Shown: positions 15,827 through 56,268 of the stretch, piece by piece | Layout of the letters: every line of letters starts with the position of its first letter | Position numbering within the stretch: the stretch's first letter is position 1 | Assembly: GCA_964417965.1 (NCBI GenBank) | Contig: CAYQJX010000010.1 | Span: forward strand, 318 to 64,317 | Length of the DNA: 64,000 nucleotides | Origin: an uncultured Elusimicrobiaceae bacterium | Lineage (GTDB): Bacteria; Elusimicrobiota; Elusimicrobia; Elusimicrobiales; UBA9959 | Direction: 5' to 3' | Program-made: the position numbers and the translations under genes | Notes under the pieces: generated by a model | The model's input: only the letters and a program-made list of their open reading frames with translations | What the model was told of the DNA's origin: nothing | Databases searched by the model: none

Positions 15827-15831
15827 GGCAA

Positions 15832-16509: not shown

Positions 16510-16594
16510 ATGGAAATAAAAAAAGCGGGCTTACTGCCCGCTTTCGTGGTTTCTGGGTAGCTCCGGGGGGTCAGGCCCAGGGCGGTTCTTTGCC
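16510..16594 (-). repeat. Imperfect direct repeat, copy A: kinase 3' end plus terminator
   Basis: Aligns with 22141-22221; includes the hairpin AAAGCGGGC-TTACT-GCCCGCTTT. Confidence 0.8.
16571..16594 (-). pseudogene. Orphan 3' remnant of a hybrid kinase gene (GKEPPWA-stop)
   Basis: 24 bp identical to 22198-22221; no kinase ORF upstream of it. Confidence 0.7.
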
Positions 16595-16661
16595 CGCGCC
16601 TTTGTGCCCGGTGAAGTCACCAACCTGCATGATATTTACGGGCTTGCGGCCCGTCAGTGCC

Positions 16662-20236: not shown

Positions 20237-20287
20237 GTTGCTTTCGCCGCGGCCGTATTACGGCCATTTAACCGCTGCAGCGGCAGA

Positions 20288-21370
20288 TTAAAGGCAGCGG
20301 TCGGCCCGTGTTTTAAACTTGGTCCCTTCTCCGGTAGTCCCGCCTTTTCTCATGACCCGGTATTCCGATTCGGCCGTTCTTTTAGAATCGGAAGAGCAGG
20401 CGAGCGGCGAACCGTCCTCCAGCAACGCGTGCCCGGGACAATGGACGCACTTTTCCTTCAGGCCGCAGGTGGAACACTGCTGCAGATCGCTTTTCTTCAA
20501 CGACAGCAGATATTTCCGCTCGGGGGAATCATACCAGATGGTCTTCAGATCGCTCGAGAAGACATCCCCCAGCTTATGGCGGAAACTGATGCAGGGGAAA
20601 ACCTCACCGCTTGCATCTATGAAGATGGTGTTCTTGAGCGACGGGCAGATGCTCTCGTCCTGCCTCACTTTCTCCAGCAGCGCTTCGGCCTCCGGATTGC
20701 TGCTGGCCAGTATCAGGGCAATGGCGTCATCCATCCCGTCATCGTCCATGCGCAGGTCCCGCACTGACGTGTCGCCGTTCATTTTTGAGGAAATGGTAGG
20801 ACAGGGATTGAAATCGAAACCGTTTTCGGCACAGAATCCGCCCACTTCGCGGAAATCATGCCGATTGGTCTTAAGTATCGGAGTTTTTATCTCTACGGCG
20901 ATCCCATGCTTCTTCAGCAAAGCCACATTATCAAGGGCCTTCCGCAGAGACCCCTTGACTCCGGTAATGGCCTCGTGGACCTCATGGTTCAGGGAAAAGA
21001 TGGTCGTACCGAATGAGGAAATGTGAAGGTCCGCGAGCTCTTTGGCTATGCTCTCATTAATAAGCGTCGCGTTGCTCAGCAGATTGACGCTGAACCCCAG
21101 TGACCGGGCGTCCCTTACAGTGCCCATGATGTTCTTTCTTAGGAAGATCTCGCCTCCGGTCAGATTAAGGTACAACGCCCCAAGTTCCCTCAATTCCCGC
21201 AGAAGTCTCGCGACCACTGCGTCATCAAGCCCTTCAGAAACGCGTTCGGGAATATAGCAATGGGTGCATTTCAGGCTGCACCTGGTCAGAAGCTCAATGG
21301 TAACATTGAGCGGGATATCGGCTTTCTGGGTTATTGTCTGCAGCGAAACGGCCTTGATATTTTCTTTCAT
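20288..21370 (-). CDS. Radical SAM/SPASM peptide maturase (PqqE-like)
   Basis: CSLKCTHC; LTGGE; CPSL...GEVFPC...CSTCGLKEKCVHCPG...C. Confidence 0.9.
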   Translation of the reverse strand: MKENIKAVSLQTITQKADIPLNVTIELLTRCSLKCTHCYIPERVSEGLDDAVVARLLRELRELGALYLNLTGGEIFLRKNIMGTVRDARSLGFSVNLLSNATLINESIAKELADLHISSFGTTIFSLNHEVHEAITGVKGSLRKALDNVALLKKHGIAVEIKTPILKTNRHDFREVGGFCAENGFDFNPCPTISSKMNGDTSVRDLRMDDDGMDDAIALILASSNPEAEALLEKVRQDESICPSLKNTIFIDASGEVFPCISFRHKLGDVFSSDLKTIWYDSPERKYLLSLKKSDLQQCSTCGLKEKCVHCPGHALLEDGSPLACSSDSKRTAESEYRVMRKGGTTGEGTKFKTRADRCL

Positions 21371-21642
21371 TTTGCCAGCTCCCCGGAAGCAGCGATGAAC
21401 CCCTTCTCGACCAGGAGTTCCGTAAGTCCGGTCATATCAGCATCCAGCACTCTTTCCTCCACGTCATAGCTTTTTAGCAGCTCGGCCCTGATGGCCTCAT
21501 AGTCATGGAGCTTCCCGATAAGCAGCCAGAAATCTTTCCCGACATTGTCGAGGGCGTAGATGAACGAGTTCCGCTCATCGCGGAGATACAGCGTGTCCAG
21601 GATCACCTGCCACGCCACGTTAAACGTATATGTCAAACGCAT
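21367..21642 (-). CDS. PqqD/RRE peptide chaperone
   Basis: 91 aa; IYALDNVGKDFWLLI...ELLKSYDVEERVLDADMTGLTELLVEKGFI; ATGA overlap with the rSAM gene. Confidence 0.85.
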   Translation of the reverse strand: MRLTYTFNVAWQVILDTLYLRDERNSFIYALDNVGKDFWLLIGKLHDYEAIRAELLKSYDVEERVLDADMTGLTELLVEKGFIAASGELAK

Positions 21643-21808
21643 CCGGCTGTCCCCTTTTAGCGAAAGTGTAAGGTAAAAAAGCCTGAAACCCACCTGCTTC
21701 GAATAAATCCCGGAAAAGATCTAACCCGAACGTATTATATTCTTAAATGGCCGGACTGGTCCAGAACATGCCGGAGGCAGCCGGGAACCGAAACCGCAAT
21801 ATAGGCGC

Positions 21809-21855
21809 CAGGACAACGGCAGCGGACACTAACTACTCGTCCCTGCCGTTGCCTG
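21809..21855 (-). promoter_or_regulatory. Stem-loop after precursor 2
   Basis: CAGG-A-CAACGGCAG-C-GGAC pairs with GTCC-CTGCCGTTG-CCTG. Confidence 0.6.
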
Positions 21856-21867
21856 ACCCGGGACCGT

Positions 21868-21981
21868 TTAGAGCACCTCGCCGGATTTGCCGTTGCAGGC
21901 ATTGCCGTGACCGCAGCGCGTGGCGGTTTTGGCGCAATTGGAAACAACGGTCAGAACGGGCGTCGAGTAAGTTTTTTTCAT
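21868..21981 (-). CDS. Putative RiPP precursor 2 (37 aa, 3 Cys)
   Basis: AGGAG RBS; MKKTYSTPVLTVVSNCAKTATRCGHGNACNGKSGEVL with a YxxPxL RRE-binding leader motif; directly upstream of the PqqD and rSAM genes. Confidence 0.82.
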   Translation of the reverse strand: MKKTYSTPVLTVVSNCAKTATRCGHGNACNGKSGEVL

Positions 21982-22040
21982 GATAATCTCCTGGTAATTT
22001 TGTTCGTTTTCTGCGTTACAAGTTGTTACGCCCAATACGG

Positions 22041-22056
22041 AGCAATTTATATGCCA
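22041..22056 (-). promoter_or_regulatory. Sigma-54 promoter of precursor 2
   Basis: TGGCATATAAATTGCT on the minus strand. Confidence 0.8.
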
Positions 22057-22111
22057 GGGCGCCTTGTTACAGAAGCGGCCAAGTGTTTTGCTTACGGATG
22101 CCGCAAAATAT

Positions 22112-22147
22112 ATTCTCATTTGAAAATATTGTTTTCAAATATGAATA
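22112..22147. promoter_or_regulatory. Palindromic activator site (candidate UAS) plus a weaker second site
   Basis: ATTCTCATTTGAAAAT at 22112-22127, identical to 28617-28632; degenerate GTTTTCAAATATGAAT from 22131. Confidence 0.65.
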
Positions 22148-22221
22148 GAAAAGCAGGGCAATGGCCCGCTTTCCTAGTTTTGGATAGCTCCGGGAGGTCA
22201 GGCCCAGGGCGGTTCTTTGCC
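22141..22221 (-). repeat. Imperfect direct repeat, copy B: kinase 2 3' end plus terminator
   Basis: Aligns with 16510-16594. Confidence 0.8.
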
Positions 22222-23880
22222 GGTTACTTTAAGCCAGGGGAGATGAGAGAATTTTTCGGGGCCGTGGCCGGTGGCCATGGTGAGGTCGGTAAAACCTTTC
22301 GCATGCAGGGCCTGGGCCGTGTCTTCGCCCTTAACGTCGCCGCCCAGCTCGGAGTCTATATAGATTGGCGTATCTTTGGGCAGGGCTTCAGTGCCGGCGA
22401 TAAGTTCTTCCGGGGTTTTATGCGCCTTGAACTCCACGCCTGCGGCTTTGGCGGCCATCCGCCAGTTCATGTGCACCAACAGGTCGTCGTCCAGCAGCAC
22501 CGCGCGCGCAGGCGCGGTTTTAGCCGCGGCCGCCGGCAGTTCCAGCGTAACGGCGGTGCCTTTGCCCGGCTCGGATTCCATCCTGAAGCTGCCGCCCCAG
22601 GCCTCCACCGTTTTGCGGGCGTGGTAAACGCCCAGGCCGGTGCCGCCGGCCTTGCCGTGCGTTTCGCCCTTCTGCCCCAGCCTGGCCAGGATCTCCGGCT
22701 GTATGCCTTTGCCATTGTCCTTTACGGTCAGCAGCACTTTGTGGTCCAGGGCGGACAGGGAGACCGAGACGGTACCCGGCCCGCTGAAGGCTTCTACCGA
22801 GTTATTGATAAGGTTTGAGACCAGCCGCTGGAATTCGGTGGGCTCCACTGAAGCTTTGATCTCCGCAGCGCCGGCGGCGAAATCGATACTGACGCCGGGC
22901 TTATCCTTGTGCTGCAGCCGCTTCTCCGCGACCACCTGCTCCACAAGACCGCCAAGAGCGAGCACCGCGGTTTTGGGTTTAGCCGGCCCGGAGGACGGCG
23001 CGCGGTAACGGGTTAGCAGTTCGTCGGCTATGCCCTGCATGCGCGCCACCGCCCCGTCTATCATGTTGCGCTGCTCCTGCGGGAGCTCCAGCCCTTTAGC
23101 CGCCGCATCCAGCGCCGCCAGCGGCGACCGTATATCGTGCGCCACCTGCGCGGCCAGGTCTGAGGTGGCCTTGGAGATAGCCAGCTCGCTCTCCAGCCGC
23201 GCCGCCTTGCCGAGCGCGTCGCTCATGCGCCCCGTCATCTGCGCGAAAGGCGTGCCTATGGTGCCGGACGGCAGGCCGGCTATATGTTTTTTTATGGACT
23301 CCCGGATGACCTCGCTGTGCCGGGAGTCGGCCACGGCGTTGATCTCGTTGACCGAGCGCTCTATAGCGAGCAGCGTCTTCATTGCACCCAGATTGGAGAT
23401 AATCAGCAGCCCCAAGAAAAAGAAGACCACGGTAATGAACAGCACGTAGTTCTGGCCGAACACCGCGGCGTTTACGTCCAGCAGGTCTATCACGTACTCA
23501 AGCCGGCCCAGCTCAGCGCCGTTGGAGACGAACGGCACGTTATGCGTTATCTGCGCGCGCGGCCGGTCGTAAAGATTGCCTACTATCGCCTCTTTGAAGA
23601 TCCACCTGCTGCCCTCGAACACTACCGGGTGGAAAGCAATGCGTTTTATGTTTTCGTTCTTTATGCGCCACATTATGCGCTGCGTCTCAAAAACGTCGCC
23701 GTCCAGGAAGGCCTTCTCAAAGTAGGCCGCGTTCTGCCGCATGGCGGTCAGCAACTTGTCATCAGCCACCCGCACAGCGGAAAACGCCGAGAAAGCCTGC
23801 CAAAAAGCGACGAAGACCAGCACCGACACAGCATAGTGCCGCCAGTTATAAGCGAATATCCTGAGAAATATTTTTACCAT
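22198..23880 (-). CDS. Membrane hybrid histidine kinase (HisKA-HATPase-REC), copy 2
   Basis: VAHDIRSPL, NLINNSVEA, DNGKG, GTGLG; receiver LDDD...IDS...ATG...GKEPPWA; C-terminal half closely similar to copy 1. Confidence 0.9.
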   Translation of the reverse strand: MVKIFLRIFAYNWRHYAVSVLVFVAFWQAFSAFSAVRVADDKLLTAMRQNAAYFEKAFLDGDVFETQRIMWRIKNENIKRIAFHPVVFEGSRWIFKEAIVGNLYDRPRAQITHNVPFVSNGAELGRLEYVIDLLDVNAAVFGQNYVLFITVVFFFLGLLIISNLGAMKTLLAIERSVNEINAVADSRHSEVIRESIKKHIAGLPSGTIGTPFAQMTGRMSDALGKAARLESELAISKATSDLAAQVAHDIRSPLAALDAAAKGLELPQEQRNMIDGAVARMQGIADELLTRYRAPSSGPAKPKTAVLALGGLVEQVVAEKRLQHKDKPGVSIDFAAGAAEIKASVEPTEFQRLVSNLINNSVEAFSGPGTVSVSLSALDHKVLLTVKDNGKGIQPEILARLGQKGETHGKAGGTGLGVYHARKTVEAWGGSFRMESEPGKGTAVTLELPAAAAKTAPARAVLLDDDLLVHMNWRMAAKAAGVEFKAHKTPEELIAGTEALPKDTPIYIDSELGGDVKGEDTAQALHAKGFTDLTMATGHGPEKFSHLPWLKVTGKEPPWA

Positions 23881-25292
23881 CTAAAATCAGCCACCTCTGG
23901 ATATTCCGAGAACCCCCGACCGACATCTAAATTTTTAATATTTTGTGGATAATAAAGCTTTGTACTGCTTTGATACAACGGCAAGACAACAGCCTCCCGC
24001 TGCACCCCGCTCGCCAACGCCATCGCTGCCTTCACCTTATCGGCCCTACCGTCCAGGGAGAGTAATTCCTTGTACATTTTCCTGAGATCGGCAGGAACAC
24101 TATCTATCACAGCAGCCTCACCCAGATAGTACTCAAAAAACGGCGCATATTCCGGCCTGACCGTATCAGATACAATCACGATCAGCCCATAAGACTTCAA
24201 CTTAGAGCGATTATGCAATTCGCTTACCAGATCCTTTGGCACGTAGTTCTTAATAATTAGTTTGAGCCCAGTACGATCGAAGAGTCGTTTAGAGAACTCT
24301 CTAAGCTGCACAGCATTGTTTTGGTATAGATTCGCTAAAACAATTTGTTTGTTCTTTAAATAGTGCTTTTTCTCATTAGTGCATGCCGTACTACTTCTGC
24401 CCGCCTCCCCCCCTGGAATGCCTAAAGGCAGCAGCCACTTCACATCCAGTAACCCCTTCCTTTCCGGAAGAAAAGCTTCCCTAAATTCTCCCGCGTCGAC
24501 ACAATTATATACAGCATCGCGAAAACGGCTATCTGGATTATTGATGGCTAATCCCACGACACGCAGTTCGATGTTGAAAAATCCGGCAAACTCTTTCTGG
24601 ATCCATTCCGGCTGCTGGAATGTGGACAGTTTGTTGAAGTCACAGATACTCCTATCGTTAAGCCGCACGTCCCCCGGGCCGGAATACTCATGAAAGATTA
24701 CTTTGTTGTATCCATTTCGGACCGGCTTTTTTCTTTCCAGTGTGATTTGCTTACTCTTCACGCTTTTCACGAAAAAGGGGCCCAGCCCGGATTCGTATCC
24801 GGTTTCAACTTTTATGCTGGGCGCATTATCAAATTTTGATAAAAAGTCCAGATACCCATGCTTCGGTTTCTGGAACCTTATAGAAACACAGCCTTCGTTT
24901 TTGTTTATAGTGGCCCCTGGCTCATATTTCTTTGTGACTTCGGAAATATATGAGAGGAAATACTGGAAAGAAAATCCGTTTTTCGCGTCAAAGCGCAGGG
25001 TCGTGTCGGGACAAAACAGGTACTCAGTAGATAAGTTGTTGCGTCCCCAGCGTTTTAATATGCGTGACGCATAGTTCTGGCCGTCATCTTGGCGAAAAAC
25101 CGGTTCGTGCGTCTGCCGGAGGACATAGAAGGTGGAGGTTTCAGATTCGTTCTTAACGGACACTTCCGCAGGCAAGGCTCCGATCAGCACCTTCCAAACA
25201 TCCTTCTCAGAGGACGTGCCGGCAGCGCACTCCCCGGCAAAGATCGGACAAAAGAGTACCCCTAATATCCAGGCCGCGTGATTTGTAGACAT
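23874..25292 (-). CDS. Family-5-like solute-binding protein, copy 2
   Basis: Signal peptide; HEPVFR...ASRIL, GLGPFFV and VLPLYQ segments; overlaps the kinase start; AT-rich. Confidence 0.65.
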   Translation of the reverse strand: MSTNHAAWILGVLFCPIFAGECAAGTSSEKDVWKVLIGALPAEVSVKNESETSTFYVLRQTHEPVFRQDDGQNYASRILKRWGRNNLSTEYLFCPDTTLRFDAKNGFSFQYFLSYISEVTKKYEPGATINKNEGCVSIRFQKPKHGYLDFLSKFDNAPSIKVETGYESGLGPFFVKSVKSKQITLERKKPVRNGYNKVIFHEYSGPGDVRLNDRSICDFNKLSTFQQPEWIQKEFAGFFNIELRVVGLAINNPDSRFRDAVYNCVDAGEFREAFLPERKGLLDVKWLLPLGIPGGEAGRSSTACTNEKKHYLKNKQIVLANLYQNNAVQLREFSKRLFDRTGLKLIIKNYVPKDLVSELHNRSKLKSYGLIVIVSDTVRPEYAPFFEYYLGEAAVIDSVPADLRKMYKELLSLDGRADKVKAAMALASGVQREAVVLPLYQSSTKLYYPQNIKNLDVGRGFSEYPEVADFRW

Positions 25293-26008
25293 TCAGAATG
25301 GAAACCTATTTTTTTCAGGAATTTATTGGATGCGACATTGAACGGGTTGGCGCCTGTAGCCACAACATCCACAACCTGCGACTTTAACCAAGAGACCATC
25401 CGGCTTTTCACCTCGCACCTCTCATCCCCGGTCAACCCCGGGTCTATCCACACCCAGGTTATCCAATCAATATCCGTCCCGTCAAAGTATTTCGCCTTGT
25501 TCAATGGCAGCAATGCAATAGGATGACCGCTTTTACCGAGACAAAACACTTTTGCTTCCGGGATATGCTGTTCCGCGTTCGTTTGAATGATCTTAAGGTA
25601 CTCACTCTCAAGATATTGTTTCCACGGATACCCGAGTTTTTTAGCCCATGGACCACCGAAGTAGTTTTTCTCCGTAGACAAATAGAGTTCCTGCACCTCC
25701 GCTGAGCTCTTAAACGGATAGTCATCGATTCCAGACGGCGTTGCGCATTGGTTGGGGACAGTTAGCCCATCTCGTTGCGTCCGGTAGATCAACCTGGCTA
25801 AATATTTACCAGAAAGGTTCTTGTTCAGCGCGGCAAAGTCTTCGGGGATCTCATGCTTAAAATTCACAAGAAGTGTCGGGGTTTCCAAAGGCCAAGGAAT
25901 ATTATCCACAAGAGCGTTAGTAATCACGGCTGCATCATCCGCTTCGCACACCAGCAGCCTGTTCGTTTTGCTCACAACCTTTATTTTTTCCGGCATATCA
26001 TGACCCAT
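25262..26008 (-). CDS. Putative GNAT-fold protein
   Basis: C-terminal ITWVWIDP...NPFNVASNKFLKKIGF resembles GNAT motifs A/B; start may be 25996. Confidence 0.5.
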   Translation of the reverse strand: MGHDMPEKIKVVSKTNRLLVCEADDAAVITNALVDNIPWPLETPTLLVNFKHEIPEDFAALNKNLSGKYLARLIYRTQRDGLTVPNQCATPSGIDDYPFKSSAEVQELYLSTEKNYFGGPWAKKLGYPWKQYLESEYLKIIQTNAEQHIPEAKVFCLGKSGHPIALLPLNKAKYFDGTDIDWITWVWIDPGLTGDERCEVKSRMVSWLKSQVVDVVATGANPFNVASNKFLKKIGFHSECLQITRPGY

Positions 26009-26876
26009 AAATTGTTTTTTTATCCGTTGTCAGTTTCCTGAAAACTTTTTCACATAACACGCATGGAGCCGAATCCTCCGGGAGGAACGGGGCCATATTT
26101 AAACCAAATTTTTTGATAATCCCCCTGAAAGACAAACTTCGCATCATACGGTAAAACTCACTGTCCAAGTGAGCTTTAAGCGTTGGATGACAAATGTTTT
26201 GGATATTAGTATCAAAAACCAGAGAAGAGCAACAAATACTAAATCCTTTTTCCGGCAAGCAGGTTATTACTTTTTTATTAGGGCACCTGCGAGACAAGAC
26301 ATTGCGGTCAAAACTGGGATGCTGGTAAAAGATCCTGTTACTCCGGGCCCGCCCTACTGGCAACACCTTTTGCATCCCTATCTGAAAGTCTCCGATGTCC
26401 TTCAACTTATTAAGCAGCAGCATATCCATCGGCGACTGAACAGATGCCACCACTCCGAACCCGATATTCAAACTGCGACAGGCATTATGCAGGTTCCGGA
26501 TGTAGGAGAATGGCAAGAACTTCTTATGAAATTTATCATAAGACAACTGCACAGAATCCAATTTTTTAAACGAGGAGAGAAGTGTGACCGCGGAGCTCTT
26601 TGTTTTAGCAAAATGCCCGTTAGTGGTTATTTTGACTTTGAATTTATTCAATTTCCCGAGTTTCGAAAGGAACGCATTTGTACGGTCGAGATATAGGGTG
26701 GGCTCTCCCCCCAGAAAATGCAACGTTTTCATGCCATGCGATTCAACCGCATCCAGCAGAAGGCTCTCTTCTCGCGGATTAAGCGCCGCACTTGCATCAG
26801 GAGAACAACAGTGCGCACATGCAAAGTTGCATTTAAATCCGAACATGATGCCGATCTTGGATATTCTTTCAGTCAT
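25998..26876 (-). CDS. Radical SAM enzyme resembling the YydG/EpeE peptide epimerase
   Basis: CNFACAHCC, TTNGHFA, LSYDKFH, PVGRA, RCP...ICCSSL.F and CVLC follow the YydG/EpeE motif order as recalled from memory. Confidence 0.72.
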   Translation of the reverse strand: MTERISKIGIMFGFKCNFACAHCCSPDASAALNPREESLLLDAVESHGMKTLHFLGGEPTLYLDRTNAFLSKLGKLNKFKVKITTNGHFAKTKSSAVTLLSSFKKLDSVQLSYDKFHKKFLPFSYIRNLHNACRSLNIGFGVVASVQSPMDMLLLNKLKDIGDFQIGMQKVLPVGRARSNRIFYQHPSFDRNVLSRRCPNKKVITCLPEKGFSICCSSLVFDTNIQNICHPTLKAHLDSEFYRMMRSLSFRGIIKKFGLNMAPFLPEDSAPCVLCEKVFRKLTTDKKTIYGS

Positions 26877-26888
26877 TTTCCACAAAAA

Positions 26889-26927
26889 TTAACGCCCGAG
26901 TTACCTTTGGTAAAGCCCGGGCGTTAA
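26889..26927 (-). promoter_or_regulatory. Stem-loop after candidate precursor 3
   Basis: TTAACGCCCG...CGGGCGTTAA outer stem with inner TTACC/GGTAA. Confidence 0.55.
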
Positions 26928-26962
26928 CCCATTTGAATATCGAAAAGAACTTTACAGAAAGA

Positions 26963-27175
26963 TCACCCGACCTTGGTGGGCTTGGGGTCCCCATGGACAA
27001 GAACCTGGGCGCACACATTATTTAACATGCGCTGCTTCGCAGGATTCTGGATTACCTGCATAAGAGAATTCTTTTGTTTAGCCGGGAGGGTTCGGACATA
27101 CTGAACCGCCTGTATTGCAGAAAATAAGCCGACCGACACCAAAAAAGCCGCTATTATTTTGTCTTTCGTTGTCAT
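26963..27175 (-). CDS. Candidate precursor 3 (70 aa, Sec-type signal peptide)
   Basis: AAGGGG RBS; hydrophobic N-terminus ending AIQA; internal PAKQ repeat; first gene before the rSAM. Confidence 0.55.
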   Translation of the reverse strand: MTTKDKIIAAFLVSVGLFSAIQAVQYVRTLPAKQKNSLMQVIQNPAKQRMLNNVCAQVLVHGDPKPTKVG

Positions 27176-27236
27176 TTTGTTTTCCCCTTAACCCCTATAT
27201 TCTGCCATTTTTGCGGGTTTTGCGCAATTTGCCGAT

Positions 27237-27412: not shown

Positions 27413-28465
27413 CTACCGCGCGCCGGCGGCGGCGAGGCTGAGGTCTTTGCGGTACTGGGCGATGGAGCGGCGGCTCAGGTCCACGCCGTGGCGGGAGCGC
27501 AGCTCCGCGCAGAGCCGGGTGTCGCTGAGCTGCGGCTGTTCGGCGGCTATGGAGTAGAGGCGGTCCAGGTTGACCTTCTTGGAGCTGGGCAGCAGCACCT
27601 CCATGGGCGCCTCCATGCCCCAGGGCATCTGTATCGATTTATTGGAGACCAGGCGGTTGAGCACGCTGGCGTCCACCTCCAGGTTCTTGGCCAGCGTCTT
27701 CTGGGACAAGGGGCGGCGGCGGCTGGGGTCCCCGGTGGCCAGGTAGTCGGCCTGCACGCTGATTAGGATCTCCAGCGCGCGGTAAAGGGTGGTCTTGCGC
27801 TTGTCGGCGAACTCTATCTTTTTCAGCAGCTTCTCCACGCGCTTGCGCTCGGCGGGGTCCATACCGGGCAGCAGGGCGGCCAGCTTGTCGCCGTCCACCT
27901 TGTAGCGGCCTTTCCAGATCTCGCGATGAAAGAAGGCCAGCACGGGCTCGCCGTCGTCCAGCTCTATGCCGGCCACGGCGCTGAACACCTTGGCGGCGGG
28001 GGCCTCGGGCTTCGCCTCGAATTCGGCCTGGATGAAGGCCCGGTTGACGAAATCGCGCAGGCGTTCGGCGTCCTTAATTGTAATGTCGCATTCTTCGGCG
28101 CGCTCTATGTCGCTCATCACGGCGTCGCGCAGGAAGCAGGCCTCGAACTTCTCCTGGCCTATCCCCTGGATCAGCTTCACCAGGTCGCCAGTGCCGTCGG
28201 CCAGCTCGGGCAGGTCGCCGCTGGCCATATTGAGGCCGTAGCCGGCGTATTTGCGCGCGGCGTAGCGGGCGGCGGGAAATTCGCTCAGGTTGATGGCGCC
28301 GGAGGTCTTGAGCAGCTGGAACACGCGGCCGCCCTCCAGGTCCTTTATCATCTCCGCGAATTCTTCCTCGGGCATTTCGGCCATCTGGGCCATTTTAAGC
28401 GCGCCCAGCAGGGCGGCCGAAGTTCTTGCCCCGGTGGAGGCGGTGAGTTTAAAGCTGTGTTTCAT
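27413..28465 (-). CDS. rpoN: Short, divergent sigma-54 factor
   Basis: HTH PLSQKTLAKNLEVDASVLNRLVSNKSIQMPWG and RpoN-box-like SRRSIAQYRKDL; only 350 aa. Confidence 0.78.
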   Translation of the reverse strand: MKHSFKLTASTGARTSAALLGALKMAQMAEMPEEEFAEMIKDLEGGRVFQLLKTSGAINLSEFPAARYAARKYAGYGLNMASGDLPELADGTGDLVKLIQGIGQEKFEACFLRDAVMSDIERAEECDITIKDAERLRDFVNRAFIQAEFEAKPEAPAAKVFSAVAGIELDDGEPVLAFFHREIWKGRYKVDGDKLAALLPGMDPAERKRVEKLLKKIEFADKRKTTLYRALEILISVQADYLATGDPSRRRPLSQKTLAKNLEVDASVLNRLVSNKSIQMPWGMEAPMEVLLPSSKKVNLDRLYSIAAEQPQLSDTRLCAELRSRHGVDLSRRSIAQYRKDLSLAAAGAR

Positions 28466-28509
28466 AAAAAGCTCCCTATGCGCACATTATACCTGTTATT
28501 CAAGAACAG

Positions 28510-28525
28510 AACAATTTTAATGCCA
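28510..28525 (-). promoter_or_regulatory. Near-consensus sigma-54 promoter in front of the rpoN-like gene
   Basis: TGGCATTAAAATTGTT (-12 is GT rather than GC). Confidence 0.5.
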
Positions 28526-28596
28526 GCGCTGCGGACAGCAAACTCCGATTTGGCCCCCGAGCGCCGGAAGTTTGTATAATATAGATAGGGTTATAT

Positions 28597-28632
28597 ATTC
28601 TCATCCGAGAACTGCCATTCTCATTTGAAAAT
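28597..28632. promoter_or_regulatory. Tandem palindromic activator sites between rpoN and the activator gene
   Basis: ATTCTCATCCGAGAAC (28597) and ATTCTCATTTGAAAAT (28617), starts 20 bp apart as at 15791/15811. Confidence 0.68.
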
Positions 28633-28653
28633 CAAAGCGGCCCCTGGGGGAGC

Positions 28654-30000
28654 ATGGAAAAACTCAATATTTTCGTACTGGAAGACGACAAACTGGCCCA
28701 GAAGGTGATGGGCGCGCACCTGTCCCCCCACACAGTGGACATGGCGGCCGACCTGGACTCGGCCCTTAAAAAGCTGGACGCCGGCCGCTACGACATGGGC
28801 TTCTTCGACCTGATGCTGGGCGTGAACGACGACTATTCCGGCCTTAAGGCCATAGCCGCGGCCGCCAAAAAAGGCATCTACAGCGTGGTGGTCTCCAGCT
28901 CGGACTCGGACGAGATGATAGACAAGGCCTACGCCCTGGGCGCCTCTGATTTCTACGCCAAGGGCAACGAAGAGGCTAACGTGGAGGAGATCCTGCGCAA
29001 GTTCCTGCAGAACCGCAGGGCCGCGGCTTCCGACGATATCTTCACCTCCGCCTTCATCACCGAGGACCCCGAGACCCGCGCGGCGGCCACGGAAGCGCTT
29101 AAGTACGCGCCCACCGACCTCCCCATCCTTATCCTGGGCCCCTCCGGCACCGGCAAGACCTCGCTGGCCAACATCCTGCACGAACATTCCGGCCGCGAGG
29201 GCGCCTTTGTCTCCATCAACTGCTCCGCCTATACCGACGACCTGCTGGAGGCCGAGCTGTTCGGCCACAAGAAGGGCGCTTTCACCGGCGCGTCCGAGGC
29301 CCGCAAGGGCCGCCTGCTGGAAGCCCACCGCGGCACCCTGTTCCTCGACGAGATCGGCACCATGAGCCACAACATGCAGATGAAGCTGCTCAAGGCCATA
29401 GAGGAAAGGACCTTTTATCCCCTCGGCTCCGAGAAGCCCGAGCGGTCCGAGTTCCGCATCATCAGCGCCACGCTGGAGGACCCGCAGGCCCTCATCGCGC
29501 AGGGCAAGATGCGCTTCGACCTGTTCCAGCGCATCCACGGCTACACCATCAACCTCAAACCGCTGGCGCGGCGCCGCGCGGACATCTTCCCGCTGGTGCA
29601 CCATTTCACCAAGGGCGGCCGGCGGCTCTCTTTCAGCCCGGACGCCAAGGCCTTCATGCAGGACTACGCCTGGCCGGGCAATATCCGCGAGCTCAAGAAG
29701 TTCACGGACCTCGTGTCCGGCGGGCAGCAGGGGCGGGTGGACCTGGACACGGCAAAGCGGCATCTCAAGGGGCAGGCCCTGGCCGCGGGCGCGGGCTACG
29801 AGGATTCGCTCTACGCGCTGGCGCTGGCCGAAGGCCTGGACGCCGCGCTGGAGAAGGTGACCGGCGAGCTGGTAGGGCGCAGCCTCCGCGAGAACGGCGG
29901 CGTGCGCACCAAGACGCTGACCGACCTGAAGATCTCTACAAGGCTTTTATACGCCACCCTCAAAAAACTGGGGCTGGATACCGAAGGGGGAAAGAAATGA
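28654..30000 (+). CDS. NtrC-family sigma-54 enhancer-binding response regulator
   Basis: REC domain (EDD, FFDL, YAK); GPSGTGKT; [13 protein letters not shown]; LFLDEI; WPGNIREL; C-terminal HTH. Confidence 0.92.
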
Positions 30001-34553: not shown

Positions 34554-37500
34554 ATGGAGCAGGAACCTAAACTGGACCCGTCGACAATTACCGACGTGGA
34601 AACCGCCAAACTGGCGCTGCGCTGGGCCGTGGAGAAGATCCACGGCCTGCAGGAGGAAACGGGGCGCCTGCGCGAGGACAACCGGACCAAGACCTCCATC
34701 AACCGCTCCCTGACCGAACAGGTGGAGCAGAAAACCGAGATCCTCAAGAAGTGGCAGGGCACCATAAAGACCTGGGAAGAGAACTGGAAGACCCAGACCG
34801 CCATGGAGTCGGACCTCAAGTCCAAGCTCCGCGAACAGATCCTCAACGAAGAGAGCACCAACTGGCGCGCCGCCCGCATCCAGCTCGAGAAAGAGATCGT
34901 CGCCCTGAAGAACGAACTCGCCGCCCGCGAGAACGAGATCGGCCGCGTGAAGATGGCGATGATAGACGAGTCCCGCAAGGCCTCCGAGGTCAAAGAGGCG
35001 GAACTCAACGCCCTGCTTTCCAAACACCAGGACAACCTCGCCTCCCGCGAGGCGGCCCTGCGCGAGAAGTACGAGCGGCTGGAACACGAGCTGATGGCCG
35101 CCCAGCGCCTGCGCGCGGAGCAGGAAGAACTGTCCCTGCGCGAGCGCTACGAGGTGAAGGCCCAGGAGCTCTCCAAACTGCACGAGCAGAAAGAGGCGCA
35201 GCTGGAAGCCTTCCGCACCCGCCTGGAGAACGACTATTTCGAAAAAACCGGCGCCGTTAAAGGCGAAGCCGCCAAGGAGCTGGAGGCCCGCCGCCTGGAG
35301 CTGGAAGGCTCCTACCGCGACCTGAAGACCTCGCTGGAGAAGGAGCTGGAGGAGAAGCAGGCCAAGAGCAGGGCCGAAGAAGAAGCCCGCAGCCAGGAGC
35401 GCCGCGCCTCGTTCGACAACAGGCTGGCCGCCCTGGAAAAAGATTACGCCGAGCGCCTCACCCGCGCCGAAGAAGAAAAGACCGCCGAGATCGCGGCCTT
35501 CAAGAGCGCCGCCCAGCGCGAGCTGGAGACGCTGCGCGTGCGCACCCAGGAGGCCGCCGGCAAGCGCGAGCAGGAATACGTGGACCTGCGCCTGGAGATG
35601 GAAGGCCAGCTGGTGGAGCTGGTCAAGAAGCGCGAGGAGGAGATCCGCGCCCGCTACGAGCGGGCGGCCGACGAAACCCGCCTGCGCTGGGAGCGGGCCT
35701 CCAACGAAACCCGCGCCGCGCGCGACGCGGAAGCCGTCAAAGCGGCCGAGCGGGCCGAAGCCGAATTCAAGCGCCGGGAGGAAGAGCTGCGCGCCCGCCA
35801 GCAGGAGGAGTTCAAGGCTTTCCGCGGGAAGACCGAGGACGAACTGCGGGGCAGGGAAGAAGCCCTGCGCGCCGCCATGCTGGAGGAGCAGAACGCCTGG
35901 ACGGTGCGCCAGCAGGCCGCCGCCGACGAAACCCGCCGCGCCCTGGAGGCCAGCCACGCCGACAGGCTCGACAGCCTGCGGGCCGGGCTGGAAGAAGCCT
36001 ACCACATGAAGGAAAAAGCGCTGGAGACCAGGGTGGCCTCCGTGCAGCGCAAGATCAAAGCCGAATGGCTGGCCCGCGAGGACGAGTGGCGCATAGAGAA
36101 GGAAGCCGTCCTGCACGAGGAGAAGGAGAAACTTAAGGCCGAGTTCGAGGACCACCGCTCCCTCCTGCACAAGAAACTTTCGCAGTTCGAAGACGAGATG
36201 AAGCTCAAGTTCGCGCAGAAGGAGGCCGAGGCGGACAACGCCCGCAAGGCCTCCATCGCCGCGGCCGCCGACGAGCTGAAGAAAGAGCTCGAGGCCGAAA
36301 AGGCGCGCCTGCGCGACCAGGTCTCCTTCGCCAAACGCGAGCTGGAAACCCGCGAGAACGCCGTACGGCAGGAAGCCGACGCGACGGTGAAGACCATGGC
36401 GGACAATCTGCGCCGGCAGGAGGAAGAGCTCAAGGACAGGCAGCGCCGCAAACTCGAAGAAGCGGAAGCCGCCTTCAGCTCGCGCCTGGACGCCGAGCGC
36501 GCCAGGCTGGCTTCGGAGTTCTCGGCGCGCGCCGCCGCCGCCGAACAGGAGCGCCTCAAGGTGCTGGAAGAAAAGTCCGCCCTCGAGGAGGCGCACGCCG
36601 CCAAGGTCCGCCAGCTGGAGGCCGCCGGCGAAGACCGCGCCCGCCAGGAGCGCGCGAAGGCCGAAGAGGCCTTCCATTCCCGAGAGCTGCACATGAAATC
36701 CCGCGAGGCCGAGCTGGACAAGCTGCGCATCACGCTGGAGCAGCAGCACAACGACCTGAAGCTGAAGCTTTACGCCGAACTGCAGGAGAAGGAGCACGAG
36801 CTGTTCGGCAAGCTGGCCTCCGCCAAGGAGGAGATGTACAAGGCCCTTAACGCCCACCGCGAGGTGCTCGACAAGGAGCACGAGGCCCGGCTCTCCGGCC
36901 TGATGCAGAAGGAAGAGGAGATGCAGGGGCGCTTCGACGAAAAGATCAAAGCCGCGGAAGCCGCGCTGAAGCAGCGCCTGCAGGACGAGACCGACAAGCT
37001 CGCCGTGGAATTCGAGGGCCGCAAGGCCGACCTGGACACCAAGCTGAAGGCCAGGGAGCAGTCGCTGCTGTCGGCCTTCTCGGAAAAAGAAGCCCGCATG
37101 GAGGCCGAAGCCGCCATCCGCGAAAAGAACGCCGCCGCGGCCCAGGAAAAAGCCGCCGAGCGCCGCCGCCAGGACATGGAGAACACGCTGGCCCGCCGCG
37201 AGAAGGAACTGGACAAGAAATACACCGAACTTTCCGAGAAGCTCAACACCCAGTTCAGGTCCGAAAAGGCCTCCTGGGAAGCGCAGAAGCTTTCGGTGCT
37301 GAACGCCGACCGCCAGGCCCTCAGGGCCGAGTTCGAGAAGAAGGACGCCGTCATCGAACAGAAGTTCAACGAGGAGCTGGCCAGGAGCCGCCAGGAAAAA
37401 TCCCGCATGGACGAGGAGCTCTCGGCCAAGAAGGAAGAACTGGAGAAAGCCTATTACGCGGAACTGGAACGCAGCCGCGCAGCCGCGGAAAAAGTCAGGA

Positions 37501-37718
37501 AAGAGCAGGAAGCCCAGCTTAAGGTCCGCTTCGAGGAACTGGAGCGCGAGCAGAACAGGCTCAGCCTGTGGACCGTGAGCAAAGAGGACGAATACGCCAA
37601 GCGCTGCCAGGCCCGCGAAAAAGAGCTGATGAAACTCTGGGAGGACAAGCAGGCCGAGCTGGAGAAGGAATATTCCGCCAAGCGAAAGGAACTGGAGGCG
37701 AAGTTCGGCAGCAGGTGA
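34554..37718 (+). CDS. Giant coiled-coil protein A (1054 aa)
   Basis: Continuous E/K/R/A/L-rich heptad-like sequence with no Walker A, TM or signal peptide. Confidence 0.8.
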   Translation: MEQEPKLDPSTITDVETAKLALRWAVEKIHGLQEETGRLREDNRTKTSINRSLTEQVEQKTEILKKWQGTIKTWEENWKTQTAMESDLKSKLREQILNEESTNWRAARIQLEKEIVALKNELAARENEIGRVKMAMIDESRKASEVKEAELNALLSKHQDNLASREAALREKYERLEHELMAAQRLRAEQEELSLRERYEVKAQELSKLHEQKEAQLEAFRTRLENDYFEKTGAVKGEAAKELEARRLELEGSYRDLKTSLEKELEEKQAKSRAEEEARSQERRASFDNRLAALEKDYAERLTRAEEEKTAEIAAFKSAAQRELETLRVRTQEAAGKREQEYVDLRLEMEGQLVELVKKREEEIRARYERAADETRLRWERASNETRAARDAEAVKAAERAEAEFKRREEELRARQQEEFKAFRGKTEDELRGREEALRAAMLEEQNAWTVRQQAAADETRRALEASHADRLDSLRAGLEEAYHMKEKALETRVASVQRKIKAEWLAREDEWRIEKEAVLHEEKEKLKAEFEDHRSLLHKKLSQFEDEMKLKFAQKEAEADNARKASIAAAADELKKELEAEKARLRDQVSFAKRELETRENAVRQEADATVKTMADNLRRQEEELKDRQRRKLEEAEAAFSSRLDAERARLASEFSARAAAAEQERLKVLEEKSALEEAHAAKVRQLEAAGEDRARQERAKAEEAFHSRELHMKSREAELDKLRITLEQQHNDLKLKLYAELQEKEHELFGKLASAKEEMYKALNAHREVLDKEHEARLSGLMQKEEEMQGRFDEKIKAAEAALKQRLQDETDKLAVEFEGRKADLDTKLKAREQSLLSAFSEKEARMEAEAAIREKNAAAAQEKAAERRRQDMENTLARREKELDKKYTELSEKLNTQFRSEKASWEAQKLSVLNADRQALRAEFEKKDAVIEQKFNEELARSRQEKSRMDEELSAKKEELEKAYYAELERSRAAAEKVRKEQEAQLKVRFEELEREQNRLSLWTVSKEDEYAKRCQAREKELMKLWEDKQAELEKEYSAKRKELEAKFGSR

Positions 37719-37740
37719 TCCGCCGCAGGCGGAGCCGTCT

Positions 37741-40656
37741 ATGACTAACGGGATCCCCCCCCACGATTTCGAGGATATCCTCAAAGAAACCGAGTTGGAC
37801 TCGGCCAAGATGATCCTGCGCCTCACCTCCGAGCTGCACGACAAGGAGGTGGAGGTCGCCTCCACGCGCTCGCGCAGCTTCGAGGAGATCCAGCGCAACA
37901 ACAAGGCCAAGGAGGCCGAGTTCGAGGCGCTGATGCGGGCGCAGGAGGAGCGCATCGCCAAGCGCGAACAGGAACTGGCGCGCCTGCTGGTGGATAAGGA
38001 ATCCGCCCTCTGGCAGAAGTACCAGGCCATGCTCGACGACGCGGTCAGCCGGCAGCGCGGGGAATTCGAATCGGAGCGCGAACTGCTGAGATCCGATATA
38101 GAAAAAAAAGAGGCCGAACTGGCCGCCCAGAAGAAGAACCTCCGGCTGGAGATGGAAGCCCTTTTCAAGAAGTGGGAGGCCGAGCGCGAGGCCGATTTCA
38201 AGAACGAGCGCGAAACTTTCATAGAAGAGCTAAAACTGGGCCGCGAGACCGCAAAAAAAGACGCCATGGAACGTGCCCGGCACATGGAAGAGCTCTGGCG
38301 CCAGAAACTGCTGCAGCAGGAAGCCGATTTCAAGAACCGCGAGGCCATAGCCGCCGAGGAAATACGCAGCCACATGCGCCGCGAAAGGGTGGAGGAGCTC
38401 AGGGAGGTCAACGACCGCCTTAATTCCGAATTTTCAAAGCGCGAGGCCGAGCTCTACGCCCACTACGCCGCCTGGCTGGAAGAGAACAAGAAGCTCATAG
38501 AGGACAAGCACGCCAGGCGCTCGGAGGCCGTGGAGGCCGAGCACAGGGAAAGGACCGCCCGGCTGGAGGATTCGCTGGCCAAGACGCGCCAGGAGCTGGA
38601 TGCCCGGGAGAAGACCTGGGAAGAAAAGTACGGAGAGCTGCGCCGCTCTTACGCCGAGAAAGAGGCCGCCCTGGACGCCCAGGGGCGCGGGCTGGAAGCG
38701 CAGCACCTGACCCGCGACCGCGAGCTTTCCGAGAAATACGAAGAGCTCGCCCGCTCGCTGCGCGAAGACGCCGCCCGGCGCAAGGACGCGCTCCTCAATA
38801 AGGAAAAAAGCCTCGAGACCCAGTACGCCGCCAACCTGGCGGATTTCGCCGCGGAGAGCGAGCGCCGCCTTAAATCCATAGAGACCAGGGAAGCCAAAGC
38901 GGCCGCCGAGCGCGGCGAGCTGGCCGCGCTGCGCGCCCAGATAGGTTCGCTGCTGGCCCAGAAACAGCAGGACCTGGAGAAAACTTTTGCCGAGCGCAAC
39001 TCCCTGGCCATGCAGTCGCTGGAGGAGTCCTACAAGATAAAAGAAGCGAGCCTCGCCAAGAAATACGAGGACATCGACCGCCATTACGCCTCCCTCGCGG
39101 CGCAGCGGGACGAGGCCCTGGCCAGGGCCGACGCGGCGCAGCAGGAGAACGCCAGGCTTAAGGACGCTCTCTCCTCGCTGGACTCGGACGCCAGGGGCGC
39201 CGCCGAGGCCGAGCGGGCGCGCCTCGCCGCGGAGCGCGACAGGCTGGAGGCGGAGTTCCGCGCTAAGACCGAAAAATTCAAAACAGAAGCCGCGGAGCGG
39301 GAGCGGGCAATGAAAGCCGCCTACGCCGAAAAGCTGGAGGCCGAAAGCTCCAGGCTGGGCGCCCAACTGAAGATAAAGGAAGAGGCGCTGGAAAAAGAGC
39401 GCGAGGAGCTGGACCGGCGCTCCGCGGAAACGGAAGAGCGCTTCATGCAGGCGCTCAAAGAACGGGAAGGCGAGATCAGCGGCAACTTCCTCCGGCACTC
39501 CGAGCACCTTAAGAACCAGGCGGAAGCCGCCCGCCGCGCGTGGGAAGAGGAGCGCGCCGCCCTTGCCGCGGCCGCGGACGCCGAGACGGCCAAGGCGCGG
39601 GAGCAGGAGCGCGAAGCCGCCGCCAGGCGGGAGGCCGAGCTGAAAGTTTTTTACGAGGCGAGGGAAAAAGAGTACCGCGCCTCCGCCGACCAGGCCGCGC
39701 AGGCCACCGAGCGCCACCTGGCGGAGAATTTTGCCATCAAGGAGCAGTCCGTCACTGCCAGGGTGAAGGCCCTCGAGGAAAGCCTGGCCAAGCTGTCGGG
39801 GGAAGGTGAAACGGCCGCCCGCGAACTCGCGGCCGCCAAGAACGAACTGGAGCTGTTCAGCACCCGCCTGGAAGAGGCCGCCCGCGAAAAGCAGAAGCTC
39901 ATACAGGAGAACCTCACCAAGGCCCGCGACCTGCGCCAGACCCTGGAGAAGGAATTCCTCGACAAGCTCAAGGACATAGAGCAGAACTACCTCGGCCAGC
40001 TGACCGACCTGTCGAAGCGCTCGGAGGAGGCCCGCCGGGCCGACCAGGACGAATATTTCCGCAAGCTGCAGTTCGTGAAGGACGATTTTAACGCGCAGCT
40101 GGCCGAGCAGGCCAAAGCCATGGAGGCCGCCTACCTGGAGCGCGAAAAGAACCTTTCCGCGGCCATGGAGCAGTCCTTCAAGCTCAAGGAAAAAGCGCTC
40201 GGCGCGCGCCAGGCGCAGCTGGAGAACAGCTACCAGGCCATGCTCTCGGAAAAATCCTCCCTGATAGACACGGACCGCGAGCTGGCCGACAGCGTAGGCC
40301 GCATGAAGGACGAACTCGAGGCGAAAAACCTGGAGCTCAAAGAGACCATAAACTCCTACAACACCCGCCTGGCGGAACTTGAGACCAGGCTGCGCTCTGA
40401 TTTCGAGGCCCGCCGCAAGGACCTGGAGGACACGCAGCGCATGCGGGCCTCGCAGCTGGAATCCGAACGCGCCAAACTGAAAGCCGTGCTCGACCAGGAG
40501 CAGCGGCTGGTGACGGACCTGCAGAAGCGCGAAGCCGCGCTGCAGGAAGGCTACGCGGCGCGGGAAGCCGAGCTGGCGCGCCGCTTCAAAGAAGCCCGCG
40601 AGCGCCTGGAAAAAGATTACCAGGACAAGCTGAAAGAACAGGGCGGGAATAAGTAA
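37741..40656 (+). CDS. Giant coiled-coil protein B (971 aa)
   Basis: Same composition as protein A; begins 22 nt after its stop. Confidence 0.8.
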   Translation: MTNGIPPHDFEDILKETELDSAKMILRLTSELHDKEVEVASTRSRSFEEIQRNNKAKEAEFEALMRAQEERIAKREQELARLLVDKESALWQKYQAMLDDAVSRQRGEFESERELLRSDIEKKEAELAAQKKNLRLEMEALFKKWEAEREADFKNERETFIEELKLGRETAKKDAMERARHMEELWRQKLLQQEADFKNREAIAAEEIRSHMRRERVEELREVNDRLNSEFSKREAELYAHYAAWLEENKKLIEDKHARRSEAVEAEHRERTARLEDSLAKTRQELDAREKTWEEKYGELRRSYAEKEAALDAQGRGLEAQHLTRDRELSEKYEELARSLREDAARRKDALLNKEKSLETQYAANLADFAAESERRLKSIETREAKAAAERGELAALRAQIGSLLAQKQQDLEKTFAERNSLAMQSLEESYKIKEASLAKKYEDIDRHYASLAAQRDEALARADAAQQENARLKDALSSLDSDARGAAEAERARLAAERDRLEAEFRAKTEKFKTEAAERERAMKAAYAEKLEAESSRLGAQLKIKEEALEKEREELDRRSAETEERFMQALKEREGEISGNFLRHSEHLKNQAEAARRAWEEERAALAAAADAETAKAREQEREAAARREAELKVFYEAREKEYRASADQAAQATERHLAENFAIKEQSVTARVKALEESLAKLSGEGETAARELAAAKNELELFSTRLEEAAREKQKLIQENLTKARDLRQTLEKEFLDKLKDIEQNYLGQLTDLSKRSEEARRADQDEYFRKLQFVKDDFNAQLAEQAKAMEAAYLEREKNLSAAMEQSFKLKEKALGARQAQLENSYQAMLSEKSSLIDTDRELADSVGRMKDELEAKNLELKETINSYNTRLAELETRLRSDFEARRKDLEDTQRMRASQLESERAKLKAVLDQEQRLVTDLQKREAALQEGYAAREAELARRFKEARERLEKDYQDKLKEQGGNK

Positions 40657-49537: not shown

Positions 49538-50626
<1,089 letters not shown>

Positions 50627-50659: not shown

Positions 50660-50696
50660 ATAGTCTACAACCTCAACCCGACAGCGTAGTGTCGGG
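50660..50696 (-). promoter_or_regulatory. PafBC/RecA-NDp-like recA promoter, copy 2
   Basis: Minus strand CCCGACA-N6-TGTCGGG-N8-GTAGACTAT, i.e. TGTCGG-N10-TAGACT. Confidence 0.7.
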
Positions 50697-50808
50697 GTGG
50701 CGGAAAAGTATTATGTTAACATTTCTGCACCTCAGTTAAAGAACCTTTTCGCCGCGACCTCATTGAGTATAGATGATTTTTCTCCAGCTGTCAAGTATTA
50801 AGGAGATA

Positions 50809-50837
50809 TTGACTTTAGCGATATAATATATTATCCT
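50809..50837 (+). promoter_or_regulatory. Leaderless-type sigma-70 promoter of the lexA-like gene
   Basis: TTGACT-N17-TATCCT, 6 nt before the ATG; palindrome ATAATATATTAT at 50823-50834. Confidence 0.55.
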
Positions 50838-56022: not shown

Positions 56023-56268
56023 ATGGCAAACCCGAAATTCATGAAAGAAATGCAGCCTGACGCGGAACTCAGCGCCGTTATTGGAGCGGAGCCCGTTGCC
56101 CGCCCCACCGCGGTCAAGAAGATCTGGGACTACATTAAGAAGAACGGTCTCCAGGACAAGGTCAACAAGCGCAACATCAACGCCGATGACAAGCTCCTGA
56201 AGATGTTCGGCAAGCCCCAGATAACGATGTTCGAACTGGCCGGCATCCTCGGCAAGCACCTGAAGTAA
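56023..56268 (+). CDS. SWIB/MDM2-domain protein
   Basis: ELSAVIG...RPTAVKKIWDYIKKNGLQD..NKRNINADDKL...QITMFEL. Confidence 0.9.
   Translation: MANPKFMKEMQPDAELSAVIGAEPVARPTAVKKIWDYIKKNGLQDKVNKRNINADDKLLKMFGKPQITMFELAGILGKHLK

Follow-up and report, generated by a model that had tools for sequence, protein, structure and literature searches.

In the window (the whole stretch of 64,000 nucleotides analysed here), recA on the minus strand and a gene for an S24/LexA-like repressor on the plus strand are divergent neighbours, and a palindromic element followed by a -10 hexamer stands between them, directed toward recA (Table 1). Read on the minus strand from 50696 to 50660, this composite is CCCGACA-CTACGC-TGTCGGG-TTGAGGTTG-TAGACT-AT, with the recA ATG (50626) 34 nt downstream of it. 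A preliminary description of this DNA had reported the composite here and again at 2085-2121, and both are correct to the base: the 22-position pattern CCCGACA-N6-TGTCGGG-N9-TAGACTAT has exactly two matches in the window, at these two places and both on the minus strand, while 100 dinucleotide shuffles of the window, used as the chance level, gave none. The bare core CGACA-N6-TGTCG matches only the same two sites (0.03 expected), and TGTCGG-N10-TAGACT is exact at both.

Table 1. Positions and sequences of the recA-lexA spacer and the second palindrome in the window, of the recA promoters in distant Elusimicrobia lineages, and of the sites found with the palindrome alone
Feature	Position	Strand	Remarks
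Distal arm of the recA palindrome, CCCGACA on the recA strand	50690-50696	-	about -41 to -35 from the predicted start
Inter-arm spacer, CTACGC on the recA strand	50684-50689	-	occupies the -35 hexamer position; unlike TTGACA
Proximal arm, TGTCGGG on the recA strand	50677-50683	-	about -28 to -22; position of the PafBC -26 element and of the DriD proximal half-site
-10 element TAGACT plus AT (TAGACTAT) of the proximal recA promoter	50660-50667	-	always 9 nt after TGTCGGG
recA	49538-50626	-	Pfam RecA, 1.2e-137
Distal recA-directed sigma-70 promoter, TTGACA-N17-TATACT	50766-50794	-	11/12 consensus positions
Conserved LexA-like box tGTCAAGTATTAAGGAG (GTCA-N8-GGAG)	50789-50805	+	putative operator of the adjacent LexA-like protein
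Promoter of the lexA-like gene, TTGACT-N17-TATCCT	50809-50814 and 50832-50837	+	read from the sequence
LexA-like S24 repressor gene, 218 aa	50844-51500	+	Pfam, NCBIfam; LexA-type winged helix; leaderless
Second full composite, CCCGACA-N6-TGTCGGG-N9-TAGACTAT	2085-2121	-	pattern match
Gp49/HigB-like toxin	1670-2047	-	Pfam; downstream of the second composite
XRE-HTH antitoxin	1374-1703	-	Pfam; pair 1374-2047 behind the second composite
recA promoter	L115		taccGCGACA-gaatc-TGTCGCggta-atatgt-TATACT
recA promoter	L118		taccGCGACA-tacagt-TGTCGCggta...TAGAAT
recA promoter	L119		caacCCGACA-cacctt-TGTCGGgttg...TAGACT
recA promoter	L121		aatGCGACA-atacgc-TGTCGCtaa...TATAAT
recA promoter	L122		taaCGACA-aaaaag-TGTCGctt...TAAAAT
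recA promoter	L123		ggtGCGACA-ctacgt-TGTCGCacc...TAGGAT
Palindrome-only sites, two	L082		before a Dcm methylase and a nuclease-like gene
Palindrome-only site	L087		before a Gp49 toxin-antitoxin pair
Palindrome-only site	L113		head of a DUF6794...DUF5131-type I restriction operon
Palindrome-only site	L108		before a 98-aa gene beside an RmuC-AddA-RecQ-AddB cluster
Palindrome-only site	L100/L101		before a radical-SAM gene
Palindrome-only sites, two	window		recA site and toxin-antitoxin site

We observe no -35 element in the palindrome promoters. ACTACG or AGGCCC stands at the 17-bp position (2/6 to TTGACA in either case), matches to TTGACA at the 16- to 18-bp positions upstream of the -10 do not exceed 2/6, and a sigma-70 scan makes no call for the proximal recA promoter. 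Three other assignments were ruled out for this element, namely a terminator (the transcribed strand has no T-run), an alternative-sigma promoter (a -35/-10 pair needs more than the 10-nt gap between TGTCGG and the -10), and a MerR-type site (the dyad centre, about -31.5 relative to the predicted start, falls outside any 19-bp spacer). Farther upstream of recA, a perfect 10-bp palindrome, ATGTTAACAT, is found at 50713-50722, where the sequence on the recA strand resembles an extended -10 (TGtTAACAT); GTTAACATAATAT occurs again in L119 and L123, likewise upstream of the recA palindrome, and neither of these loci has a lexA-like gene.

The second composite, from 2121 to 2085 on the minus strand, reads CCCGACA-GTATGG-TGTCGGG-GCGGTCTGG-TAGACT-AT, with filler bases unlike those of the recA copy. 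L087 and L093 have the same type of gene pair, a Gp49 toxin with an HTH antitoxin, downstream of the motif. Divergent from the window's second palindrome is a gene for a 91-aa predicted membrane protein without a Pfam match (2217-2492, plus strand); it is probably not driven by the palindrome, since a -10 in the required register is missing on the side of this gene.

Conservation of the palindrome at recA

Homologues of the window's LexA-like protein at 80-97% identity all come from Elusimicrobia or Elusimicrobiales MAGs. The exact palindrome is present in the recA-lexA spacer of 25 of the 26 Elusimicrobiales species, and the remaining one, L011, has a single mismatch. On the recA strand, the Elusimicrobiales consensus is AACCCGACA-N6-TGTCGGG-wTG-N6-TAGACTAT, followed by a conserved leader with GGAGG and then the ATG. 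Variation among species falls in the N6 spacer and in the nine bases preceding the -10, with the arms and the -10 kept, a pattern that reads as the footprint of selection and not simply of recent common descent.

Distant recA loci were reached via RecA homologues at 75-85% identity and represent six Elusimicrobia lineages with GC contents of 0.32-0.65. All six carry CGACA-N5/6-TGTCG-N11-TAnnnT before recA, and in every one S24 genes are absent within 10 kb of recA. The invariant core across lineages is CGACA/TGTCG, and around it the arm pairs co-vary symmetrically (CCCGACA/TGTCGGG, GCGACA/TGTCGC, ACCGCGACA/TGTCGCGGT, and GGTGCGACA/TGTCGCACC). Stepwise change of the outer bases on both arms is what would be expected of a homodimer with drifting specificity. 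In L115, the only case with an N5 spacer, the register of the proximal arm to the -10 is unchanged, which would be hard to explain unless a bound protein faces RNA polymerase in one fixed way.

Genes behind the palindrome

A metagenome scan with the pattern CCCGACA-N6-TGTCGGG-NV-N7-TANACT, in which V was picked to skip recA sites and the spacing was imposed, recovered 24 contigs. Approximately 18 of these show features that lie outside the pattern, namely a spacer of sTACGs or GGCCCT, CTGC before the -10, and AT after it; CTGC directly before the -10 produces an extended -10 (TGnTAnACT). Inter-arm spacers across the regulon are mostly sTACGs or sGCCCT. Six of the 24 loci (L077, L078, L081, L086, and L079/L095), which are without the shared flanking features and without Elusimicrobia context, were set aside as probable chance matches. 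Among them, L079 (8032-8066) and L095 (1787-1821) have the palindrome and TAGACT ahead of a hisH-like gene, at a distance of 7 nt from its ATG, on a contig with a GC content of 0.70; this is either a chance match or an actinobacterial promoter of the PafBC type whose palindromy is coincidental. A scan of viral contigs for the composite gave no matches, and coverage in metatranscriptome X18 came only from the conserved recA coding sequence of mixed organisms.

The repair genes behind the motif encode RecQ, ComM (Mg-chelatase-like), RadC, and a receiver-domain protein followed by SSB. Furthermore, the motif precedes a "DNA modification/repair" radical-SAM protein with DUF4130, a 910-aa N6/N4 methylase, DUF3800 and DUF5131 proteins, toxin-antitoxin pairs of the Phd/RelE-like and Gp49/HTH (HigB-type) kinds, and a 98-aa protein of unknown function. 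By exact-sequence look-up, several of the motif-driven proteins carry the name Elusimicrobia or Elusimicrobiales. In six regulon genes the ATG stands 6-7 nt after the -10, which would give leaderless mRNAs, and this position fixes TAnACT as the working -10 and with it the start site.

With respect to spacing, the palindrome alone was searched in flanks and newly fetched contigs, with no -10 imposed. TAnnnT is found exactly nine bases after TGTCGGG, and on one side only, in 8/8 of the palindrome-only sites on Elusimicrobia contigs (Table 1), which alone test the spacing, as it was built into the metagenome scan; the chance of TAnnnT at the nine-base offset on either side is approximately 1/32 per site. 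The fixed distance to the -10 proposed in the preliminary description is thus an invariant register.

On the contig series L108-L112 (approximately 90-9470, from an Elusimicrobia lineage with a GC content of 0.56), the 98-aa gene adjoins an RmuC-AddA-like-RecQ-AddB-like operon, which has an ECF sigma gene at its end and no palindrome on the operon side.

Known WYL systems and the candidate regulator

PafBC, which acts by "sigma adaptation" at the RecA-NDp promoters of Actinobacteria, has the consensus tGTCgg(N10)tA(N3)T without a -35, and PafB reads a "-26 element" at -23 to -28 (PMC8635444). The recA promoter had initially been likened to this system, and its register does match exactly, with tGTCgg-N10-tAnnnT at the window and related sites. 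Further likenesses are the missing -35, recA as the flagship target, and the coexistence with a LexA-controlled recA promoter; the LexA-dependent and PafBC-dependent recA promoters of mycobacteria would be mirrored by a dual recA control in the window lineage. However, PafBC is a heterodimer on one non-palindromic half-site, whereas Elusimicrobia have a conserved, co-varying symmetric distal arm, and the closest match is found in the homodimeric DriD and DdaA.

DriD of Caulobacter crescentus is a homodimeric HTH-WYL-WCX activator (PMC13004042, PMC10853764). Its site, ATACGACAGTAACTGTCGTAT, contains the palindrome CGACA-N5-TGTCG and, set at a constant distance from the -10, overlaps the place of the -35 (PMC13004042), and its targets include recJ, dnaG, an endonuclease, and small proteins (PMC13004042, PMC10853764). 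In the didA construct with an optimised -35, TTGACA is placed in the inter-arm spacer, leaving cTGTCG-N11-CAATCT (PMC13004042), and the register placed in this way equals that of cTGTCG-N11-TAGACT in the window. Elusimicrobia and DriD also share a pseudo-palindrome with the core CGACA...TGTCG straddling the place of the -35, the absence of a recognisable -35, and a fixed distance to the -10. They differ in arm spacing, N5 in DriD versus N6 in most Elusimicrobia (N5 only in L115), and in the outer arm, ATACGACA versus CCCGACA in the window. The DNA covered here yielded no DriD homologue.

DdaA of Moraxellaceae is likewise a homodimeric WYL activator and binds CGWCA-N5-TGWCG, with sites at the promoters of recA, ssb, uvrA, ruvAB, a radical-SAM/TIGR03915 pair, and restriction-modification/CRISPR genes; these sites lie approximately 50 bp upstream of the start, and homologues from Chrysiogenes and Geoalkalibacter also bind the motif (PMC12392091). 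Common to DdaA and the Elusimicrobia system are the palindrome core at recA and ssb and a regulon that includes a radical-SAM pair and restriction-modification or defence genes. The position is different, approximately 50 bp upstream for DdaA versus a centre at about -31.5 in Elusimicrobia, which is the PafBC/DriD register, and so is the spacing (N5 versus N6).

A WYL-like mode is suggested because the half-site cTGTCG, the register TGTCG-N11-TAnnnT, the missing -35, and the target genes are shared with DriD/DdaA. The Elusimicrobia element would work like this class and appears closest to DriD in geometry. Seen beside DriD and DdaA, a palindromic site would be expected rather than odd; the palindromes of both are published (PMC13004042, PMC12392091), and palindromic WYL control of recA outside Actinobacteria has already been described and is not new in kind. 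What would be added is a further phylum for LexA-independent control of the CGACA/TGTCG class, and the TGTCG-N11-to--10 register common to PafBC, DriD, and the Elusimicrobia system suggests that all three engage RNA polymerase in a shared manner. A literature search for the motif strings returned only primers.

We consider a WYL-type, LexA-independent activator to be the best reading of the palindrome, with a probability of roughly 0.55. A homodimeric transcription factor would sit on the palindrome in place of a -35 element and help the housekeeping RNA polymerase to start at -10-only promoters, often with an extended -10 (TGnTAnACT). DNA damage would generate single-stranded DNA (ssDNA), which would bind the WYL domain; the dimer would then bind CGACA-N6-TGTCG, polymerase would be recruited, and recA, ssb, recQ, comM, radC, the radical-SAM/DUF4130 pair, and the restriction-modification and toxin-antitoxin genes would be switched on. 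The fixed register and the missing -35 argue for activation rather than repression, and the WYL identity of the factor, its sensing of ssDNA, and the induction of the regulon by damage are presumed from the likeness to the known systems. Several observations count against the WYL activator: an HTH-WYL gene was looked for and not recovered (see below); the extended -10 of most regulon promoters (TGCTATACT) is good enough that it could act unaided, which would suit a repressor; the arms are spaced by N6 in most lineages, not by N5 as for DriD and DdaA; and DdaA sites lie approximately 50 bp upstream of the start, not at -31.

As the preliminary description had stated, the window has no WYL gene: Pfam detects neither a WYL domain in its approximately 58 predicted proteins nor pafB or pafC. 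The Pfam lists of loci L100-L123 likewise contain no HTH-WYL gene, and in 1.46 Mb of related DNA no WYL protein was recovered by a crude motif scan or a BrxR phmmer search, both of which are weak screens. The regular expression for the WYL "FRxDRI" signature gave only false matches to RecA, and among PDB entries the BrxR query, from pEFER, extends no further than BrxR/CapW and, barely, PafBC. The E. coli K-12 YafY gene is a 147-aa remnant. WYL proteins have been reported in almost every bacterial phylum (PMC6789036), so that their absence from the window and the sampled loci says little.

The palindrome could alternatively serve as operator for a repressor distinct from the adjacent LexA-like protein, which would block polymerase on a -35-independent extended -10 promoter and be released upon damage. 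Candidates for this repressor are a canonical LexA whose gene lies elsewhere, a BrxR/CapW-type WYL repressor, and an XRE/DdrO-like protein. The regulon does resemble an SOS regulon, CGAC-N8-GTCG has the 4-N8-4 geometry of the E. coli CTGT-N8-ACAG, many of the promoters have a strong TGnTATACT that may need no help, and a site spanning about -41 to -22 would occlude polymerase. We nevertheless judge such a repressor unlikely: operators of global repressors usually vary in position, whereas the register here is invariant in 8/8 sites and phylum-wide, shortening of the spacer from N6 to N5 leaves the register of the proximal arm unaltered, and no S24 or repressor gene carries the motif among approximately 25 distinct promoters.

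An activator from outside the WYL family, binding the palindrome at the -35 position and recruiting polymerase like a class II activator, would satisfy the geometry, which argues for an activator, and would agree with the lack of a WYL gene in the window, in the L100-L123 Pfam lists, and in the weak 1.46 Mb screens. We hold it to be quite unlikely, given that the half-site cTGTCG and the exact register are common to three characterised WYL regulators. A gene for a DUF480 (YceH-like winged-helix) protein lies 1-2 kb upstream of recA in L119-L121 and could encode such a binder; its absence from the window, L115, L117, and L122 speaks against this, leaving the DUF480 protein a weak candidate for a recA-linked regulator. 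The DUF480 genes are located at 8094-8729 in L119 (L120 being a near-duplicate) and at 8351-9232 in L121, with another at 256-909 in L123, 9 kb from recA.

The LexA-like gene and a second recA promoter

The lexA-like promoter in the window carries GTCAAGTATTAAGGAG and no palindrome. Just upstream of the -35 of this promoter, the box at 50789-50805 is the likely operator of the adjacent LexA-like protein, judging from its conservation: tGTCAAGTwTTAAGGAs (GTCA-N8-kGAC), with the usual LexA 4-N8-4 geometry, stands at a fixed place before the gene in 26 Elusimicrobiales loci and approximately 40 loci from other phyla. It is followed by TTGACn, 17 bases, a -10, and an ATG six to nine bases farther on, so that the transcript is leaderless. 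No second copy of the box was found in the flanks, where a PWM scan of 0.9 Mb gave weak matches only, and we found no description of this box motif in the literature.

The LexA-like family is patchy, with members at 53-74% identity in Patescibacteria, Nitrospirota, Acidobacteriota, Bacteroidota, Pseudomonadota, and others. In the alignment, its recognition helix, ESPQKIKHHLLQLEKKGF, is essentially invariant across phyla, Ser131 and Lys174 are invariant, and Cys92-Gly93 is the probable, UmuD-like self-cleavage site. The family looks like a mobile, autoregulated SOS-type switch. At the loci of other phyla (L026-L071), the genes divergent from the lexA-like gene are varied and often small or defence-like (by eye, for example, Dcm methylase and TIR-like, DUF3892-like, and DUF2188-like proteins), and many of these loci have a leftward TTGACr-N16/17-TAnnnT promoter sharing the LexA-like box.

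The preliminary description had left room for a novel LexA box, through which the adjacent LexA-like protein would bind the palindrome and repress recA. Its gene is divergent to recA in 26 related species, it combines an S24 domain containing Ser/Lys with a LexA-type winged helix, and, as with LexA SOS boxes generally, the palindrome precedes recA and other repair genes and lies beside a lexA-like gene. Unlike SOS boxes, the palindrome is absent from the lexA-like promoter, does not travel with the LexA-like protein, and is fixed to the -10. The gene's own promoter has a different, 16-bp box that is kept with the gene across many phyla, and despite the invariant helix the CGACA palindrome is found at 0/44 non-Elusimicrobiales loci, including the two in which recA is divergent (both on Pseudomonadota-labelled MAG contigs). 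Conversely, six Elusimicrobia lineages have the recA palindrome with no S24 gene within 10 kb. Because the same DNA-reading helix occurs in palindrome-free genomes and the protein has its own conserved box, we consider it very unlikely to be the palindrome binder. Equally improbable is that no dedicated factor exists, the 45-bp unit being instead a "mobile promoter" or hairpin element that has been propagated, with its spacing kept by descent: filler stretches are similar among unrelated genes (gcggtCTGC, sTACGs), but the arms co-vary symmetrically while the spacers diverge, the target genes are functionally coherent, and the transcribed strand has no terminator T-run.

recA has, in addition to the proximal palindrome promoter, a distal sigma-70 promoter whose -35 overlaps the LexA-like box, TTGACA being the reverse complement of the first bases of the box. 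This TTGACA-N17-TATACT is invariant in 26/26 Elusimicrobiales loci. In the window lineage, recA thus probably has two promoters, a distal one repressible by the LexA-like protein and a proximal one dependent on the palindrome, with predicted starts at about 50759 and about 50655, respectively. Of the LexA-independent damage response put forward earlier, the palindrome regulon stands, as it is not tied to the adjacent LexA-like gene; recA itself, with a second promoter overlapping the LexA-like box, is probably not fully LexA-independent in this lineage. Together with the WYL-type activator, a horizontally acquired LexA-like cassette would have added a second, probably LexA-like-repressed recA promoter, giving dual control as in mycobacteria. 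If true, horizontal transfer rebuilt the mycobacteria-type dual control of recA in one Elusimicrobia sublineage.

Elusimicrobia are almost entirely uncultured, and we found no published work on their damage response, for which the sequence-defined regulon provides a testable map. A broader reading, which we put forward tentatively as a possibility, is that the damage response of Elusimicrobia is run mainly by an activator in the PafBC/DriD register and not by LexA, that this activator combines a DriD-like symmetric dimer with the -26 contact of PafBC, and that one sublineage has a mobile, autoregulated LexA-like cassette adding an SOS-type recA promoter. In that phylum-wide reading, the binder could even belong to a non-WYL family. 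The LexA-like cassette, with its own box and patchy spread, is a separate lead on SOS-type switches moving between genomes.

Elsewhere in the window, we observe five radical-SAM genes (three with SPASM), a PqqD-like protein, two ABC exporters, a histidine kinase, and small ORFs between them at approximately 11500-27200, which look like RiPP-type peptide maturation clusters; third-position GC at 23.9-27.2 kb is far below that of the rest. At 27413-30000, a 350-aa sigma-54-like protein matches only the Sigma54 DNA-binding domain, and divergent from it is a protein with a receiver and a sigma-54-interaction ATPase in which a DNA-binding domain was not detected. Adjoining proteins of 1054 and 971 aa at 34554-40656 have no Pfam match and are apparently rich in coiled coils. 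Finally, an 81-aa protein at 56023-56268 is a stand-alone SWIB/MDM2 domain (1.4e-25), a domain that is uncommon in bacteria.
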